Assembly (NCBI GenBank): GCA_035549255.1
Contig: DASZRD010000009.1
Location: 1-47,070 of the forward strand
Reading direction: 5' to 3'
From: Minisyncoccota bacterium
GTDB lineage: Bacteria; Patescibacteriota; Minisyncoccia; Phycocordibacterales; SBAW01
Length of the DNA: 47,070 bases
The notes under the pieces were generated by a model that had not been told where the DNA came from, did not search any database, and was given only the letters and a program-made list of their open reading frames with translations. The position numbers and the translations under genes were made by a program. This document shows, piece by piece, positions 34,507-47,070 of the stretch; position 1 is the first letter of the stretch, and every line of letters starts with the position of its first letter.

Positions 34507-34660
34507 TAAAACCTGCCTCGGCGACAAGGCGGGAGTTATCCACACAATTTTTGATTTTTTCGTTGTATGTTCATTTTTAATAATCGATACTTGTAGGTAG
34601 GGCATCGAACATTTGTCAGCACGTCGTCCCTCGCGAGCGCGTGACAGGCAAGGTCGATCG

Positions 34661-34753
34661 ATGCATAACTTTAAGTGCGATCAAATCGCAAATTGTATGG
34701 CAAAGAAAAAGAAGGCAGCAAAGAAAAAGAAGGCCTCGAAGAAGCGCAGATAA
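34661..34753 (+). CDS. unlisted 30-aa polybasic mini-ORF (or 18 aa from the ATG at 34697)
   Basis: Translation MHNFKCDQIANCMAKKKKAAKKKKASKKRR. AAGG lies 7 nt upstream of the ATG. The ORF contains an 18-bp tandem duplication (gcaaagaaaaagaaggc x2) and is followed by a strong terminator. Coding status is unproven. Confidence 0.4.
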   Translation: MHNFKCDQIANCMAKKKKAAKKKKASKKRR

Positions 34754-34812
34754 CGCTTCCACAATCCGCAGCCTCAACCTGTAGGGGGCGCGGAATCCTC
34801 TCGAAAGAAAAG

Positions 34813-34838
34813 CCGTCTGTCCTGGGCAGACGGTTTTT
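34813..34838 (+). terminator. rho-independent terminator
   Basis: CCGTCTG tcctggg CAGACGG followed by TTTTT. Confidence 0.8.
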
Positions 34839-40624: not shown

Positions 40625-42703
40625 GTGATCACGCGGCACAAGCTCATCTTCATCGGATTGGCGGGCATATTTTTTCTGCCTGCTTTCGCGCAGGCGTCGG
40701 TTTTGGGCAGGCCTACCAATAATCTCGGGCTTGTCTCGTACTGGCCGCTCGACGAAGGCTCAGGGTCAATAACGGATGACGTTACTGGCGCCCATGACGG
40801 CACCCTGCATGGCTCGCCCGCATGGGTTGCGGGAAAGTTCGGCGACGCTGTGAGCTTTAATGATAACGGCAGCCAGTATATAAGCGCGGGGACCAATACC
40901 ATTACCGGAGCAAATCCTTTTACGCTCGCCGCGTGGGTCAATACGGCGCAATTAACGAATTATGCAGGGGCAGTCGCTATCGGGCCCTCGGCGTCATATG
41001 AGTCGGCTTATATAGGCGTCGTAGCAGGCGCCCAATACGGCACTTCTAATTCGCTCGGAGGCGGCTTGTACGGGGTAAACATCGGCTCGGGTGTTACAAC
41101 CATCGGCGCATGGGTGTATATAGCGATGACGTCGGATGGAACCAATATAAGGATGTATATAAATGGCACGCTTACTAATACCGTGGCGGCGACGCCTTCG
41201 CTTGCGAGCGGGCCGATTGGCATCGGCCGGATCGGTACTGACACCACATATGACTTCAAAGGCGTAGTAGACAGCCCGCGTATCTACAGCCGCGCGCTTT
41301 CTGGGGCTGAAGTATCCGCGCTGTATCGGGCGGGCCAAGCGAAATTTACCTCGCTCAACAGCAACGGGCTCACAGGGTATTGGAACTTCAACGAGGGAAG
41401 CGGTTCGACTGCGAAGGATTTCATCAGCGGTTCTCCCAACGGAAGTGTTATGGGGTCGCCCTCGTGGGTCGCCGGCAAGCAGGGGAGCGCACTCTTGCTC
41501 AACGGCTCCTCGCAATACGTTGACGTCCCGATAACTGTCAATTACCCAGCCTTCACCGTTTCAGCATGGTTTAACGCAACCTCTCTCTCGGCGAGCAACT
41601 CTCGTATCGTCGCCAACAGCCATACTGATGACGCGGCGGAACACAACGGCTTCCAGCTCATGTTTAATACCGGAGGCACTTCCGGATTTTTCGATGTAGG
41701 TAACGGTTCGAGCGAGGGCAGGGCAACCTGGAGCCAGACGCTCTCGACCGGCACGTGGTACCACTACGTCGGTGTCTACGACGGCTCCAGCGTATACGCG
41801 TACATCAACGGCGTGCAAGTAGCCTCGACGAGTTACGCAGGGGGTCCTATCGCGCCATCGGGCTATGACGTCAGTATCGGCCGCAATAATAATGCGGAGT
41901 ATACGGGCGACTACTTCAGCGGCGTCGTTGACGACGTGCGCATCTACGACCGCGCACTCTCCCCGAGCGAAGTTGCGGCGATGTATACTGCCAACATCCC
42001 TGCAGGCAAGGTGAATGTTAATACGTCGTCAGCGAACTTGTCTGCAGACAACAGCTTAGGCAGCGGGCTCGTCAGCCTGTGGACCTTCGACGGGGCAGAC
42101 CTCACCTCAACAACCGCGGCTGACCGCAGCGGGCAGGGGAACAGCGGCACCCTTACCGGATCGCCGGCACCGACGATAGGGAAGCTCGGCCAGGCGCTTT
42201 TGTTTAACGGCTCGAGCTCGTATGTCCGCCGGGCGACGCTCGCCACTTCCATCGGCTCGAATGCGACGATCTGCGCATGGATAAAGACTTCCTACACCGG
42301 CGGCGATCAGGTCATCTGGACCATCGACCGCAACGCAAGCAGCATCGTCAACGAGGGCATATTCAAAATCATTGCCGGCAAGCTGCGCTACTGGGATTAT
42401 ACGGGCTCCGCATACGGGTTTACCGACAACACGCCTGACGGCAATACGACCGTGACCGACGGAGCGTGGCACGACGTCTGCTTTACGAAGAGCGGCACTG
42501 CAGGAACGTTCTATGTCGACGGACTTTCGGACGGCACCAAGACAGCCGCCACCAACATCTCGTACGGCGCAACCGATATGGTCGTAGGTACTGACTATCG
42601 CGGCAGCAGCTCTTACTTTAATGGCGCCATAGATGATGTGCGGGTCTATGGTCGCGCTCTCTCGTCAGCCGAGATACAGCAGCTCTACCTCATGGGCAAG
42701 TAG
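40625..42703 (+). CDS. secreted protein with three LamG/concanavalin-A-like (Laminin_G_3) repeats
   Basis: GTG start and signal peptide MITRHKLIFIGLAGIFFLPAFAQA. Repeat entries are YWPLDEGSGS, YWNFNEGSGS and LWTFDGADL. Repeat ends are DSPRIYSRALSGAEVSALY, DDVRIYDRALSPSEVAAMY and DDVRVYGRALSSAEIQQLY. Confidence 0.85.
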   Translation: MITRHKLIFIGLAGIFFLPAFAQASVLGRPTNNLGLVSYWPLDEGSGSITDDVTGAHDGTLHGSPAWVAGKFGDAVSFNDNGSQYISAGTNTITGANPFTLAAWVNTAQLTNYAGAVAIGPSASYESAYIGVVAGAQYGTSNSLGGGLYGVNIGSGVTTIGAWVYIAMTSDGTNIRMYINGTLTNTVAATPSLASGPIGIGRIGTDTTYDFKGVVDSPRIYSRALSGAEVSALYRAGQAKFTSLNSNGLTGYWNFNEGSGSTAKDFISGSPNGSVMGSPSWVAGKQGSALLLNGSSQYVDVPITVNYPAFTVSAWFNATSLSASNSRIVANSHTDDAAEHNGFQLMFNTGGTSGFFDVGNGSSEGRATWSQTLSTGTWYHYVGVYDGSSVYAYINGVQVASTSYAGGPIAPSGYDVSIGRNNNAEYTGDYFSGVVDDVRIYDRALSPSEVAAMYTANIPAGKVNVNTSSANLSADNSLGSGLVSLWTFDGADLTSTTAADRSGQGNSGTLTGSPAPTIGKLGQALLFNGSSSYVRRATLATSIGSNATICAWIKTSYTGGDQVIWTIDRNASSIVNEGIFKIIAGKLRYWDYTGSAYGFTDNTPDGNTTVTDGAWHDVCFTKSGTAGTFYVDGLSDGTKTAATNISYGATDMVVGTDYRGSSSYFNGAIDDVRVYGRALSSAEIQQLYLMGK

Positions 42704-42731: not shown

Positions 42732-44186
42732 ATGGAGTATCGCCTTACGGTCGGCCTCGAGATACACGCCGAGCTCAAGACTCGCACGAAGATGTTCTGC
42801 GCCTGCCTCAGCGACCCCGATGAAAAGGAGGCCAACAAGAACATCTGCCCCGTCTGCATGGCCCATCCGGGCACACTGCCGGTTATCAATAGAGAGGCGG
42901 TGCACAAGGTACTGCTTGTAGGTTCGGCCGTGGGTGGGAACCTTGCTGATTTCACCGAGTTCGACCGCAAGAACTACTTCTATCCGGACATCCCCAAGGG
43001 GTATCAAATCAGCCAGTACAAATACCCGCTCGTATCCGGCGGCAGCCTTGCGGGCGTAGAACTGACCCGCATTCATCTTGAAGAGGACACGGCGCGGTCG
43101 CAGCACTCAGGCGAGAAATCTCTGGTCGACTATAACCGCGCGGGCGTTCCGCTGATGGAATTGGTGACCGAGCCGGTTATCCGAGACGCCGAGACGGCCG
43201 GCCGCTTCGCTAAAGAATTGCAGCTCCTCCTGCGCTACCTCGGGGCGGGGGAGGCGAACATGGAAAAGGGGGAAATGCGCGTGGAGGTCAACATCTCGGT
43301 AGCGCCCGTTAGGAGTGCTACCGAGATCAATCAAAAAGAGTCGCCCGTTCTCGGCACCAAAGTAGAGGTAAAGAACCTCAACTCCTTCCGCTCGGTTGAG
43401 CGAGCTATCGCGTTTGAGTTTAAGCGTCAATCCAAACTTTTAGATAAAGGCGGAAAGGTCGTGCAAGAGACTCGTGGTTGGGACGAGGCCAAGCAGGAAA
43501 CCTTCAGCCAGCGCAAGAAGGAGTCATCCCATGACTATCGCTACTTCCCGGACCCCGATCTCCCCAAACTCAAGATTTCGGAGATCCCTGAATTCTTACC
43601 TGAACAATTGAAGAGCGCATTGCCGGAACTCCCGTGGGCTAAGCGCGAGCGATACATGAGTTACGGTCTAAAAGAAGATGAAGCCAATTTCCTCGTTGAG
43701 GAGGATGGATTTCTTCAAATTATGTTTGAGGTAGTTACAAGACGAACAGAAGACAGAGAACTTACCCGACTTGCGGCTAATTACATCATTTCTGATGTAA
43801 GAGGTTACCTAAATAAAGCTGTTGTGAACTGGGATAAAAATGCATCGTCGAACATGGGCCCAGAAGCTTTTCTTGAACTAATGACTATGGTCAAAGAAGG
43901 TGAAGTATCTTCGCGTGCAGCTAAAGATATTATCCCTGAAATGTTTGTTTCCTCTAAGTCACCAAAGGCCATAGCAAAAGAAAAGGGCATCCTGCAGCAG
44001 AGCGACGCGGGCGCGCTGGCAGAGATTGCCAAGAAGGTGGTCGAGGCCAACCCCGCAGTTGTCGCCGACTACAGGGCGGGCAAGGATGCGGCAATGCAAT
44101 TTTTGGTAGGGCAGGGGATGAAGGTAAGCCGAGGTTCAGCAAATCCCGCAGCGCTCCGCGAGGCCATAGGAAAGGCCATCGTATAA
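42732..44186 (+). CDS. gatB: Asp-tRNA(Asn)/Glu-tRNA(Gln) amidotransferase subunit B
   Basis: Motifs MEYRLTVGLEIHAELKTRTKMFC, CPVCMAHPGTLPV, DRKNYFYPD and HLEEDTA, plus a C-terminal GatB_Yqey-like tail. The listed 42633 start overlaps the LamG gene and is unlikely. Confidence 0.9.
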   Translation: MEYRLTVGLEIHAELKTRTKMFCACLSDPDEKEANKNICPVCMAHPGTLPVINREAVHKVLLVGSAVGGNLADFTEFDRKNYFYPDIPKGYQISQYKYPLVSGGSLAGVELTRIHLEEDTARSQHSGEKSLVDYNRAGVPLMELVTEPVIRDAETAGRFAKELQLLLRYLGAGEANMEKGEMRVEVNISVAPVRSATEINQKESPVLGTKVEVKNLNSFRSVERAIAFEFKRQSKLLDKGGKVVQETRGWDEAKQETFSQRKKESSHDYRYFPDPDLPKLKISEIPEFLPEQLKSALPELPWAKRERYMSYGLKEDEANFLVEEDGFLQIMFEVVTRRTEDRELTRLAANYIISDVRGYLNKAVVNWDKNASSNMGPEAFLELMTMVKEGEVSSRAAKDIIPEMFVSSKSPKAIAKEKGILQQSDAGALAEIAKKVVEANPAVVADYRAGKDAAMQFLVGQGMKVSRGSANPAALREAIGKAIV

Positions 44187-44250
44187 GGATTTTTATCACT
44201 TTCTCACAACCCTCGCGTAACCGAGATGCGGCGTAGGGTATACTTACTGT

Positions 44251-45177
44251 ATGGATGAATTGGAAATCTCGGGCAAGCGGTATATCTCGACTCGCTTTGC
44301 CGCAAAGCTCCACAAATATCACGCCGACTATATCGGCCAGCTGATCCGCGGCAAGAAGGTGCCGGGGCAGAAGGTCGGCCGCGCATGGTACGTCGACGCC
44401 AAGGCGCTGGATGCTTATTTTAAAGGGGAGGCGAAGTCTCCCGCTCGTCCGCGAACGATACTCTCGATTGAACGCGTCGAACCGCGGGTTGCGGCGCGCA
44501 CGATTGTGCAAGAGGAGGAGCTGGTGGAAGCTCCTGAGGAAGAGGCCCCAGAGGGGATCGAGGAGCCTGCTCGCGAGGCTGCCGGAGCGATGGCTGACTT
44601 TGAGGAAGAGCAGCGGCAAAGCGATGAGCGCGAGGAGATCACGCCGCGCACCGTTCACGCTGCCATCGAGCCGGAGCCGGCGCGTGCGCCCGAACCGATG
44701 CAAAGCTTCCGCCGCCCGCTCCAGATAGAGCGCCACGACGAAGCAGGGCAAGAAGCGGTGGGCGAAGAACAGCCGCAAAGCGTATTCGAGACGATCGCAG
44801 AAGAATTGCGCGAAGAGGAATCCGTCCGCGAATCGATACGCATACCGATACGCCATTCGTCGGCGCACGCGCCCTCGCACCTTATGTATGTCGATGAGAT
44901 GGAAGCGGCGATCCCGACACTTACGAAGAAAGGAAATAGATCTGGTCTGGCTCCGGTGACGCGCATGCCGCGTTCGCAGGAAGAGCGCGAAGATATGGAA
45001 GAGGATACCGGCATGGCGCCGCGCAGCGCAGTACTGGTGCCGGTCATTGGCGTCGTTGTTGCGGGGGCACTGGTATTCGGCTTCGTTATGCTCTCGTCAG
45101 TGTTTGTAAATTCCACGACAATCGTTGATACGGGAAATGCATCTAACGCAGCCACAGCGCTACAAGCACAGCCCTAA
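44251..45177 (+). CDS. tail-anchored membrane protein with an N-terminal excisionase/MerR-type (HTH_17-like) domain and an acidic disordered linker
   Basis: The N-terminus YISTRFAAKLHKYHADYIGQLIRGKKVPGQKVGRAWYVDAKALDAYF fits an HTH_17 pattern. About 200 aa are Glu/Arg/Pro-rich. TM helix VLVPVIGVVVAGALVFGFVMLSSVFV lies near the C-terminus. Confidence 0.7.
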   Translation: MDELEISGKRYISTRFAAKLHKYHADYIGQLIRGKKVPGQKVGRAWYVDAKALDAYFKGEAKSPARPRTILSIERVEPRVAARTIVQEEELVEAPEEEAPEGIEEPAREAAGAMADFEEEQRQSDEREEITPRTVHAAIEPEPARAPEPMQSFRRPLQIERHDEAGQEAVGEEQPQSVFETIAEELREEESVRESIRIPIRHSSAHAPSHLMYVDEMEAAIPTLTKKGNRSGLAPVTRMPRSQEEREDMEEDTGMAPRSAVLVPVIGVVVAGALVFGFVMLSSVFVNSTTIVDTGNASNAATALQAQP

Positions 45178-45204
45178 CAAGAAATTATATATTTGAGATC
45201 ATAT

Positions 45205-45231
45205 AGCGCTTTTGTCAAAAAGCGCTTTTTT
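45205..45231 (+). terminator. rho-independent terminator
   Basis: AGCGCTTTT gtc AAAAGCGCT (9-bp perfect stem) followed by TTTTTT. Confidence 0.8.
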
Positions 45232-45288
45232 CTTATAAAAGATTGCTAAAGTTCCCCAAGCATTATCTTAAAATGTGCCGCAACTAAA

Positions 45289-45399
45289 CGAGATATTACC
45301 GAGATCTCGGATAACCTATACCGATATATCGTATAGGAGAGCCGATAAGTTATTTTTTATGAATGTTTATCTCCTATACGAGATTAATAAAAATCTCGG
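45289..45399. repeat. array of two interleaved short motifs (CGAGAT/ATCTCG and CCTATAC/GTATAGG) forming nested palindromes
   Basis: CGAGAT at 45289. Perfect 12-bp palindrome CCGAGATCTCGG at 45299-45310. CCTATAC at 45315-45321 pairs with GTATAGG at 45331-45337. GTATAGGAGA at 45331-45340 pairs with TCTCCTATAC at 45370-45379. CGAGATT at 45379-45385 pairs with AATCTCG at 45392-45398. Confidence 0.85.
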
Positions 45400-45457
45400 G
45401 ATGTAATTTTACTGGATTGATCCATAAAAATTTGAATCAAAGGGAGAATAAAATCTT

Positions 45458-45486
45458 TTGAAAATTTATTTTTTGGATTTTAAAAT
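45458..45486 (+). promoter_or_regulatory. near-consensus sigma70 promoter TTGAAA-17-TAAAAT with an overlapping 12-bp palindrome
   Basis: TTGAAA at 45458-45463, a 17-nt spacer, then TAAAAT at 45481-45486. The perfect palindrome GATTTTAAAATC at 45476-45487 covers the -10 element. Confidence 0.6.
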
Positions 45487-45573
45487 CGCTTTGCACTGTA
45501 ACAAACTATCCACATCATGAAGCGCATAGAGAGATAAAAAATTCGTGAACTCCGCGTAAAATAATAAGCACAG

Positions 45574-45612
45574 GGTAGCAATTCCTCCGGTGGAATTGCT
45601 ACCTCTTCTGTT
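45574..45612 (+). other. strong 12-bp hairpin in the putative 5' leader (attenuator/terminator-like)
   Basis: GGTAGCAATTCC tccggt GGAATTGCTACC followed by TCTTCTGTT. It lies 48-86 nt upstream of the ATG at 45660. Confidence 0.6.
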
Positions 45613-45659
45613 GCAGGAAGTTACCGAACTTTCCGCATAAACAAAAGTTTTTTCGGAGC

Positions 45660-47070
45660 ATGGCACCAGCAAAAAAAATAATTTCGGATAATGGCGCACC
45701 AATGCTCTCGGCACGTGCAGCTGCTAAGCGTCTTTCCTGCGCCCCCGATTATATCGGCAAGCTGTGCCGCGAAGGCAAGCTCCATGGTACGCAAGTCCAA
45801 GGGGCTTGGTTTGTCGAGGAAGTGTCGGTGCATGAGTTTGAAATCGCGCGCGCCGAAGCTAAGGCGAAGCGTTCCGCGTCACTCGCGCGCGAACGACGCG
45901 CTGAAAGCGCGCAGTACGCACACGTCCGTGAGACGGCACAGGCCCGCGCGGCGCGGAGCGAAAGGGCGGAAACCGAACCCGTGCGCGCGACCGCCCCGAT
46001 ATCTTCGCCCCTCTTATCTTCGAGCGTGCGCCAGGGGATCCTCCTCGCGGTAGGCGGCGTATTTCTTTTCGGTGCGATCGCTTTCGCGGGCGGAATACAC
46101 GGTCGCGATGCAGCCTTGGCGCAGCAGCAAGACCTTTCCGCATCGGTTGCGCAGGTAGACTCGCCTTTCTTCGGAGCGCGCCCGCTCGCAGTCGACACGA
46201 CATCGCTTCCGAATCCGCACACGTCGCTTATCTCGGACGTTGTCGCCTTTCTCAGCTCGCTCTTCGGCGGCGCACACTACGCGCAGGTGCAGTCGCCGTT
46301 CTTCAATGTCGCTCCGTCGACTAGCACTACGAGCGCAGCCCCGGCGTCTGGCGCCTCGCAGCAGCCGGTAGTGGCCGAAAATAATCCGCAGCCTTCAGAC
46401 CTGCCATCATCGCCGGCTGCGGCTACAACCACGATCGTGCAAAATACTTATCCGGTCATCGAGCGCACCGTCGAGCATCTGGTCTCGGGTGTTACCGAGG
46501 ATGAGCTTACACAAAAATTAAACCAGCTCGACAGCGAGCTCACCAGCAAGATCTTCTCCTCGGTCAATTCGAATCCGGCCCCCGTATATTCCTCCGGCGG
46601 CCCTACCAATAACATTGCGCTCTCGCAGATCATCAATAACCTCAATGGCGTCACGATCACGGGCGCAACCATCACTGGCAGCTCGATTGACGGGTATCTT
46701 GCGCTCTCCGGCGGCACGCTTACGGGCCCGCTCAATAACACCTCGGCCGGCACCTCGACCTTTGCTGGCTCGATCGAGCTCACCGGTGGCTGCTTCTCGA
46801 TCAATGGTACCTGCATCGGCCAGGGCAGCGGCTTCGGTTCCGTCACCTCGGTCGACGCCTCCGGCGGCTCGACCGGCCTCGCATTCACCGGCGGTCCGAT
46901 CACCGGCGCGGGCACGCTGACGCTCGGCGGCGTTCTCGCGGCGGCAAACGGCGGTACCGGCACCTCTACCGCCCCCGGCTATGGCATGATTCTGGTCGGT
47001 AATTCAAGCGGCGGCTATGACCTCGTGGCGACATCGAGCCTGGGGCTCGTGGCCTCGGGTGGTACTGGCT
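45660..47070 (+). CDS. large surface protein, 3' end off-window: HTH_17-like N-terminal domain, one TM helix, extracellular Gly/Thr/Ser-rich fibre-like region
   Basis: Not in the ORF track because it has no stop. I translated frame 3 from the ATG at 45660 to 47070 and found no stop codon. The N-terminus MLSARAAAKRLSCAPDYIGKLCREGKLHGTQVQGAWFVEEVSVHEF is paralogous to the 44251 gene. TM helix GILLAVGGVFLFGAIAFAGGI. Later LSGGTLTGPLNN, GGCFSINGTCIG and VTSVDASGGSTGLAFTGGPITGAGTLTLGGVLAAANGGTG resemble tail-fibre repeats. The exact start is uncertain: no good SD, and the ATG at 45702 is an alternative. Confidence 0.75.
   Translation, partial: MAPAKKIISDNGAPMLSARAAAKRLSCAPDYIGKLCREGKLHGTQVQGAWFVEEVSVHEFEIARAEAKAKRSASLARERRAESAQYAHVRETAQARAARSERAETEPVRATAPISSPLLSSSVRQGILLAVGGVFLFGAIAFAGGIHGRDAALAQQQDLSASVAQVDSPFFGARPLAVDTTSLPNPHTSLISDVVAFLSSLFGGAHYAQVQSPFFNVAPSTSTTSAAPASGASQQPVVAENNPQPSDLPSSPAAATTTIVQNTYPVIERTVEHLVSGVTEDELTQKLNQLDSELTSKIFSSVNSNPAPVYSSGGPTNNIALSQIINNLNGVTITGATITGSSIDGYLALSGGTLTGPLNNTSAGTSTFAGSIELTGGCFSINGTCIGQGSGFGSVTSVDASGGSTGLAFTGGPITGAGTLTLGGVLAAANGGTGTSTAPGYGMILVGNSSGGYDLVATSSLGLVASGGTG

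Follow-up and report, generated by a model that had tools for sequence, protein, structure and literature searches.

Two adjacent membrane proteins with predicted winged-helix heads, one with a fibre-like giant ectodomain, and the conserved spacer between their genes in Patescibacteria

Can one polypeptide join a DNA-binding head inside the cell to a fibre on its surface? The question is raised by two adjacent genes, here ORF1 and ORF2 (open reading frames 1 and 2), at the end of a 47,070-nucleotide stretch of DNA from a Minisyncoccota bacterium (GenBank assembly GCA_035549255.1, contig DASZRD010000009.1, positions 1 to 47,070 of the forward strand), which we call the window. Much of bacterial diversity belongs to the Patescibacteria (Candidate Phyla Radiation), which live attached to other cells; classical regulators are thought to be few in them, and their host sensing and attachment are largely unexplained. 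We tentatively favour the reading, at a little under an even chance, that the heads of both proteins bind DNA on the cytoplasmic face of the membrane and regulate or tether this locus. Below we give the evidence on the heads, on the gene pair and on the DNA between the genes, and weigh this reading against three others.

Results

Shared Fold of the Two Heads

The two genes and their parts are listed below; predicted structure is from AlphaFold2 (AF2), with its confidence given as the predicted local distance difference test score (pLDDT).

44251-45177, + strand: ORF1, 308 amino acids (aa), with a winged-helix head, an acidic disordered linker, a C-terminal transmembrane helix and a short conserved outside tail
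44251-44436, + strand: ORF1 head, residues 1-62, predicted beta-beta-alpha-alpha-beta-beta-alpha winged helix, pLDDT 87-96
44437-45024, + strand: ORF1 linker, residues 63-258, predicted disordered (pLDDT mostly below 50), acidic, with conserved short motifs
45025-45099, + strand: ORF1 transmembrane helix, about residues 259-283, Kyte-Doolittle 19-residue peak 2.74, AF2 helix 262-285 with pLDDT up to 95
45100-45174, + strand: ORF1 extracytoplasmic tail, about 25 aa, family consensus IEAGKxASVGYSL
45660-47070, + strand: ORF2, first 470 of 7,526 codons, with a head, a long charged helix, a transmembrane helix and a tail-fibre-like ectodomain
45699-45839, + strand: ORF2 winged-helix head, residues 14-60, pLDDT 96-98
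45819-45968, + strand: ORF2 single long R/E/A-rich helix, residues 54-103, confidently modelled and uninterrupted (AF2)
46020-46100, + strand: ORF2 transmembrane helix, residues 121-147, from hydrophobicity (about 124-146) and AF2
46101-47070, + strand: start of the ORF2 ectodomain, with juxtamembrane motifs AQVDSPFFG and NTYPVIERTVE..., then Gly/Ser/Thr fibre repeats

An earlier note on this DNA had proposed that both genes open with a common module, and the two heads are indeed homologous: the N-termini of ORF1 and ORF2 are 42% identical over 43 aa (BLASTP, E 9e-7), and the profiles of the two families align over 50 columns with a probability of 97.4% (hhalign, E 1e-11). The sole Pfam match is PF12728 (HTH_17, helix-turn-helix, HTH), at 19.0 bits for ORF1 and 17.2 bits for ORF2 against a gathering threshold of 27; TIGR01764 scored 16.1 against a threshold of 28.8. 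The HTH_17 assignment made in the same note holds at the level of the families, the model matching 14 of 31 ORF2 relatives (best E 9e-7) and 12 of 38 ORF1 relatives, while the proteins of the window themselves score below gathering. Both of the peptides that it gave for the module were correct, and only the start of the second, at M15, was not: ORF2 opens with the ATG at 45660, 14 codons further upstream, as homologues keep the N-terminal extension MKxxKKIxSxxGxxMLSAR.

We built AF2 models of the heads with the family alignments, and both heads were modelled with pLDDT above 90. In ORF1 the model has strands at residues 3-6, 9-13, 39-42 and 45-49 and helices at 14-21, 25-33 and 50-62; in ORF2 the strands lie at 14-17, 43-46 and 49-53 and the helices at 18-25 and 29-38. 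The predicted core fold is beta-alpha-alpha-beta-beta (wing), superposable in the models on Xis, BldC and MerR-N, and profile and structure prediction agree in making the N-terminal module a winged HTH. In a Foldseek search of PDB, the ORF1 head matched Pukovnik Xis (4j2n; template modelling score, TM-score, 0.70; root-mean-square deviation, rmsd, 1.4 Å), BldC (6amk; TM-score 0.80) and RacA (5i44), and the ORF2 head matched Xis (4j2n; TM-score 0.73-0.75), BldC (0.72-0.77), TraN and RacA. Overall, probabilities were 0.9-1.0, TM-scores to the target 0.55-0.80 (0.64-0.80 for BldC) and rmsd 1.4-2.4 Å (1.4-1.5 Å for Xis), and the closest folds are all DNA binders: Xis 4j2n, BldC 6ama/6amk, RacA 5i44, TraN 4p0z, RdfS 8dgl and pSK1 Par 8csh. 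The identity of the heads to Xis, BldC, RacA and TraN is only 8-22%, and a search of PDB by sequence with both family profiles gave no meaningful match. With a mean net charge of +3 over 47 residues (n = 365) the heads are basic, and both helix 2 and the wing hold conserved basic positions, namely R23, K26 and R/K at module positions 30, 31 and 34.

Membrane Topology and the Parts Behind the Heads

Neither ORF1 nor ORF2 has a signal peptide, and each has one hydrophobic peak with charged stretches before it. Among 248 relatives, the 15 residues before the transmembrane helix hold on average 2.66 K+R and the 15 after it 0.87, with the excess on the N-terminal side in 187 and on the C-terminal side in 16. 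From these signals both proteins are predicted to be single-pass with the N-terminus inside, placing the head in the cytoplasm. This agrees with the layout described earlier, in which a charged linker leads to a single transmembrane helix, ORF1 is tail-anchored (about 25 residues follow its helix) and the outside part of ORF2 is fibre-like.

The sole hydrophobic peak of ORF1 falls at about residues 259-283. The linker ahead of it holds 47 D/E against 24 K/R in residues 61-257 and carries the conserved motifs RDSIHIPIR and LxYxxDxxPxxP, with L211 and Y213 invariant in the ORF1 family alignment. In ORF2 the charged stretch spans residues 61-122, and the modelled long helix, in which the stripe R71, L75, R79 and E82 is nearly invariant, can be read as a rigid spacer or coiled coil. 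On the opposite strand to ORF1 lies another 308-aa ORF (43954-44880, minus strand), which is taken to be a shadow ORF of a GC-rich coding strand because all homologues and gene calls favour the + strand ORF.

ORF2 has no stop through 47069, giving 470 aa in the window. The same sequence is present on contig CAYTYW010000014.1 (GCA_964442315.1, 177 kb), where the full product is called as 7,526 aa and matches LVIVD and Bact_surface_Ig-like; in L001, 3,172 ORF2 codons are readable and contain no stop. After the transmembrane helix the composition is S 15%, T 14% and G 13%, with R+K+E+D under 6%, and the repeat GSVTSVDxSGGSTGLxFxGGPITxxGTLTLxG...GGTG matches proteins carrying Peptidase_S74. The counterpart of ORF2 in L035 carries Peptidase_S74 and Bact_surface_Ig-like, and LVIVD repeats are present in L001 and L040; Peptidase_S74 was not seen within the first 3,172 of the 7,526 aa of ORF2. 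Judged by composition and repeats, ORF2 is probably a surface filament of tail-fibre type. We rejected a phage or prophage origin of the fibre gene, as there was no PHROG match and no IMG/VR relative and the flanks are housekeeping genes.

Conservation of the Gene Pair

The earlier note asked whether the pair is conserved elsewhere. Searching one genome per species for ORF1 patterns, we obtained 63 related loci, labelled Adlerbacteria, Nomurabacteria, Paceibacterota or with generic names, and the pair is kept in 52 of them: an ORF2-type gene follows ORF1 on the same strand after 311-843 bp, and this gap has a GC of 0.28-0.44. In a 53rd locus (L057) the gap is 1,639 bp, and six of the loci without an ORF2-type gene are contig ends. 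The ORF2-type genes usually run for more than 1,700-3,100 codons, often past the flank. On the upstream side essentially every locus has the order murB-secA-dsbD-obg-gatB-ORF1, and the downstream genes are housekeeping where readable (in L035, gap-, rpiB- and rpe-like ORFs). With order, strand and spacing kept in this way, the pair is a syntenic core feature of this Paceibacteria lineage and not a local duplication. Of the three outcomes that the note had named as fatal to its idea (a module lacking the HTH fold, a head outside the cell, a pair conserved nowhere else), none was obtained.

ORF1 itself has 487 homologues at E<=1e-3, 190-310 aa long, the named ones almost all Paceibacterota/Patescibacteria proteins from metagenome-assembled genomes. 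Their N-terminal 60 aa are 70-85% identical, and across the lineage the identity of the ORF1 head is 60-85%, compared with 72-92% for SecA.

Two departures from the common layout were seen. Between obg and gatB the window carries a gene for a 692-aa secreted Laminin_G_3 protein (40625-42703), found also in L003, L004 and L010 (3 of the 63 loci), which is a recent insertion into the otherwise fixed gene order. In L058 (10990-15543) and L053 (6599-11150) the gene after ORF1 encodes a short head-transmembrane protein of 273-320 aa, and a further head gene follows 3.5-4 kb downstream, behind a TATCCACA box (described below) and scattered half-sites; in L058 the stretch between the head genes contains ORFs with hydrophobic N-termini.

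A Large Family of Head-Transmembrane Proteins

We searched 1.84 billion cluster representatives (50% identity) with HMMER, using a profile of the ORF2 N-terminus (head, helix and transmembrane helix), and found 5,356 matches at E<=1e-3, 984 at 1e-10 and 53 at 1e-30; a search with the first 150 aa of ORF2 alone gave six short fragments and gained little. Many of the matched proteins have 2,500-5,800 aa, and many others have 300-430 aa with two tandem heads. The module begins within the first 40 residues in 290 of 297 fetched proteins and is followed by a transmembrane helix in 227 of the 237 members long enough to judge (exactly one in 224), the part beyond it spanning about 25 to 5,672 residues; the head is duplicated in tandem in 68 of the 297. 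The superfamily layout is one or two heads, a linker, one transmembrane helix and a variable, often giant ectodomain, and the named members are Patescibacteria. Public names are 'hypothetical' or 'helix-turn-helix domain-containing protein', and IMG/VR held no relative. Calling ORF1 and ORF2 two paralogues, as had been done at the outset, was right as to their relationship and too small in scale: they belong to a superfamily with thousands of cluster representatives, in which ORF1 is a syntenic core gene.

A logo made from 162 modules of 70% identity or less has near-invariant positions D16, Y17, L21, C22, R23, G25, K26, W36 and V38; helix 2 and the wing thus differ little from paralogue to paralogue. 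The lone Cys at module position 22 (C36 of ORF2, in the motif LCR of the recognition helix) is present in 79% of the non-redundant modules and replaced by Ile in ORF1-type heads; from the sequences, a redox-sensitive switch at this position is conceivable. Tandem-head members in which each head has its own charged helix include P0004, P0049, P0340, P0352, P0356 and P0375 and occur at loci L012, L027, L029, L049 and L061, and a subgroup (P0340, P0362 and P0374) ends in a small conserved outside domain, ...SFSDxVxVxPDxSGxxGVITPVFK...

Conserved DNA Between and Before the Genes

The spacer between the two genes and the start region of ORF1 contain the following features.

45178-45659, + strand: AT-rich spacer, 482 bp, GC 0.34 against 0.56 for the window
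45205-45236, + strand: terminator-like hairpin and T-run after ORF1, a 9-bp stem followed by TTTTTTCTTAT
45299-45332, no strand assigned: two palindromic operator-like sites, CCGAGATCTCGG and CCGATATATCGT, 22 bp apart, family core CGA(G/T)AT(A/C)TCG
45507-45514, + strand: DnaA-box-like TATCCACA box, one copy, 42 nt ahead of the conserved -10
45557-45562, + strand: conserved -10-like TAAAAT for ORF2 (consensus gTAnAAT), from the alignment of 50 spacers
45573-45604, + strand: hairpin with a 13-bp perfect stem, GGGTAGCAATTCC...GGAATTGCTACC, inserted into the ORF2 leader of the window, L003 and L004; L009 and L043 have counterparts
45624-45656, + strand: conserved leader CCGAACTnnCnGnnnAAACAAAAGnnTTTTCGG, ending 3 nt before the ORF2 ATG in the window (3-6 nt in the family)
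44239-44244, + strand: -10-like TATACT for ORF1, ending 6 nt before the ATG

The palindrome core lies at about -300 from the ORF2 ATG and is invariant in all 24 aligned spacers. It is 85-fold enriched there: the spacers, 25 kb in all, hold 38 copies, and about 800 kb of other sequence holds 14, of which three sit just after ORF1 in loci cut before ORF2; within the 47-kb window it is confined to the spacer. Half-sites related to the palindrome are phased by about 11 or 22 bp. RNAalifold gave three invariant pairs and no covarying structure for the palindrome block, which is therefore conserved as DNA. In the CCGAACTnnCnGnnnAAACAAAAGnnTTTTCGG leader RNAalifold found no pairs at all, so it is conserved as sequence only; its ends can be read as resembling inverted, split half-sites of the palindrome. 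We also considered the whole spacer as a structured RNA or riboswitch and rejected this, there being no Rfam match better than E 0.95 and no covarying structure in RNAalifold.

The TATCCACA box is found in 46 of 52 spacers (33-fold enriched). It is on the + strand in every case, in most of them at -105 to -112 relative to the ATG, and its spacing to gTAnAAT is similar in the aligned spacers. In the window, L003 and L004 the leader hairpin shifts it from about -108 to about -153; this hairpin could be an attenuator or a stabilising 5' structure. A simple promoter scan picks instead TTGAAA-17-TAAAAT at 45458-45486 for ORF2. The box also occurs outside this spacer, in the murB-secA gap (window position 34537) and ahead of the additional head-transmembrane paralogues of L053 and L058. 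An origin of replication (oriC) was rejected as an explanation of the spacer, since there is one box per spacer, on one strand, with no cluster at up to two mismatches, the genes are not divergent, and the box recurs at these other places.

The murB-secA gap (34536-34838) has a perfect TTATCCACA box at 34536-34544, upstream of a tiny ORF (34697-34753) encoding MAKKKKAAKKKKASKKRR (18 aa), and a hairpin with a T-run between this ORF and secA. A TATCCACA box is present at the murB-secA position in about 40 related loci.

In 59 of 61 loci ORF1 is preceded by a TAnnnT motif that ends 4-9 nt (most often 6) upstream of its ATG, compared with 6% at random positions, and a Shine-Dalgarno-like motif before ORF1 was found in none of the 61. 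Judged by these motifs, ORF1 is probably transcribed as a leaderless mRNA from its own promoter in the short gatB-ORF1 gap. A CCGAGAT...ATCTCGG pair at the ORF1 start was considered as a second operator and dropped: the downstream half encodes the conserved residues EISG, and the upstream half is unconserved in the nine other loci inspected, L010 alone sharing it.

Discussion

What do the heads bind? We favour DNA because the close structural relatives are all DNA binders and the heads are basic, and because conserved basic residues lie on helix 2 and the wing and a phased palindrome array lies between the genes. The candidate targets would be the invariant palindrome and its related half-sites, arrayed in helical phase roughly 300 bp upstream of ORF2, with a possible split site again before the start codon. 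These sites may be bound by ORF1 and by the ORF2 head, nascent or assembled, which would then control transcription of the giant gene, and the heads may also hold the ORF2 locus at the membrane where the fibre is inserted. The logic would be that of ToxR and CadC: a sensor or structure outside and a DNA-binding domain inside, with no relay between them. Cooperative binding to arrays of short repeats is known for Xis and BldC, and RacA fastens the chromosome to the cell pole; binding here could resemble the cooperative, repeated-site mode of the first two.

Several observations weigh against DNA as the ligand. The Pfam scores of both window proteins are below gathering, and the Foldseek E-values are weak (0.02-0.07), the latter because the domain is short, about 50 residues. 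The palindrome could be the site of a different regulator, and TATCCACA resembles a DnaA box. HTH domains of membrane proteins can bind proteins instead; RodZ binds MreB and SepH binds FtsZ. The strongest counter-argument comes from helix 2, the recognition helix, which is near-invariant across the 162 non-redundant modules (D 0.94, Y 0.98, L 0.95, R 0.96, G 0.84, K 0.82). Such invariance is unusual for a family of sequence-specific regulators; on unrelated ectodomains it appears to fit a common ligand better than many specific regulators, and it points to one shared ligand, be it a common DNA site, DNA in general or, equally, a common protein.

That the shared ligand is a protein is possible, though we hold it to be on the unlikely side. 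The heads would then be adaptors whose helix 2 and wing receive one cytoplasmic partner common to all, be it a component of the cytoskeleton, the divisome, RNA polymerase/sigma or secretion. Through this hub, in the manner of RodZ, many different surface proteins, the giant fibre among them, would be positioned or coupled, with ORF1 as a scaffold that recruits further partners through the motifs of its disordered linker. The near-invariant recognition helix on unrelated ectodomains would suit such a partner, as would the short motifs of the ORF1 linker, of which LxYxxDxxPxxP recurs in the distant two-head relatives P0352, P0356 and P0375, and an ORF1 head about as conserved as SecA in the lineage. 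The close structural matches, all of them DNA binders, the basic charge of the heads and the specific conserved palindrome array exactly between the two genes speak against it, and no candidate partner is encoded nearby, where the flanks are housekeeping genes.

The invariant helix would equally suit a single DNA ligand shared by all heads, which leads to a reading that we regard as unlikely: a general tether between chromosome and membrane, not a regulator, with little or shared DNA specificity, pinning the nucleoid as RacA and Noc do and serving the organisation or segregation of the chromosome in very small cells, the spacer motifs being there for other factors. RacA and pSK1 Par are among the fold matches, and the family has thousands of members, several per locus in some genomes. 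Against this, the palindrome occurs only in the spacer of the 47-kb window, with no dispersed family of sites visible, and the tight, orientation-fixed promoter architecture beside the genes looks regulatory. That the head is a passive or vestigial plug keeping the N-terminus inside, with the transmembrane helix as signal anchor and the spacer as an ordinary strong promoter, is very improbable: many surface proteins need just a signal anchor, but about 15 surface and core positions are under very strong purifying selection across thousands of clusters, heads are duplicated in tandem in a sizeable share of members (68/297), and ORF1 has almost nothing outside for which its head could be a mere topogenic device.

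If the heads do bind DNA, the pair could directly link the cell surface to DNA and would represent a new class of membrane-integrated one-component systems; if they bind a protein partner, they would define a new cytoplasmic hub for surface structures. Either ligand would give a very large dark family its first function. An abundant, uniform module, often on giant fibres, is an obvious candidate for the missing link in host sensing and attachment, and the pair with its conserved spacer offers a cheap test system of two small soluble heads and one 480-bp DNA fragment. At its widest, and here we speculate well beyond what we consider probable, the head-transmembrane module could be the main wiring from surface to genome in Patescibacteria: thousands of surface proteins, with host-contacting fibres of up to 5,000-7,500 residues, would share one DNA-binding head, attachment or tension of the fibre would be passed through the rigid helix to chromosomal sites without kinase or second messenger, and the nascent N-terminus of the giant protein would regulate its own gene in cis during transcription and insertion.

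Comparison with Known Systems

ToxR, CadC, TcpP and VtrA are membrane-integrated one-component regulators (PMC6320335, PMC5430869, PMC9214523), and in the two-gene 'co-component' cassettes ToxR/ToxS and VtrA/VtrC the regulator gene stands beside one for a second bitopic protein (PMC9214523). ORF1 and ORF2 resemble them in being bitopic with the N-terminus inside and in combining an N-terminal cytoplasmic winged helix, a linker, one transmembrane helix and an extracytoplasmic part with an adjoining bitopic gene. They differ in that their heads are of the Xis/MerR HTH_17 type and not OmpR/PhoB Trans_reg_C, that the outside part is a multi-thousand-residue fibre (ORF2) or almost absent (ORF1) and not a compact sensor, that both proteins carry a head, that they come from Patescibacteria and not Proteobacteria, and that DNA binding is here a prediction. 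Trans_reg_C (PF00486) had no match at E<=1 in the Pfam scan of the window proteins; the pair lacks the OmpR-type domain that defines the ToxR/CadC family and so does not belong to it. The 'ToxR/CadC-style' of the earlier note stands as an analogy of logic and falls as a statement of family.

Another single-pass protein with an HTH head and the N-terminus inside is RodZ, in which an N-terminal XRE-type HTH that binds MreB is followed by one transmembrane helix and a periplasmic domain, and which demonstrates that such heads need not bind DNA. Its HTH is of a different class (neither HTH_25 nor DUF4115 was matched at E<=1 in the Pfam scan), and it differs from both a tail-anchored ORF1 behind a 200-aa acidic linker and an ORF2 with a giant ectodomain. 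Xis, BldC, RacA and TraN provide the best structural matches, and the phased spacer repeats and the idea of a tether suit their binding habits; unlike the proteins described here they are soluble, RacA reaching the membrane via DivIVA and not by a transmembrane helix of its own.

The outside parts have parallels as well. The repeat of the ORF2 ectodomain is shared with proteins carrying Peptidase_S74 (PF13884), the C-terminal intramolecular chaperone of phage tail fibres and endosialidase-type fibres, which are trimeric; in contrast to these fibres, ORF2 is chromosomal, lies in a housekeeping context and has an N-terminal transmembrane helix and a cytoplasmic head. Single-pass anti-sigma factors of the RsgI/RskA type, with a small N-terminal cytoplasmic domain, one transmembrane helix, a variable, sometimes large outside domain and many paralogues, share the overall layout and the expansion of paralogues, whereas the heads studied here are predicted beta/alpha winged helices and not helical anti-sigma domains, and the Pfam scan gave no match to zf-HC2 or RskA.

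We found no description of this architecture in the literature searched, which is not proof of absence. Bitopic proteins with an HTH head are already known as a kind, from ToxR, CadC, TcpP, VtrA and RodZ; what appears to be undescribed is the class of the head, its fusion to tail-fibre-like giants, the tail-anchored partner and the scale of the family in Patescibacteria.

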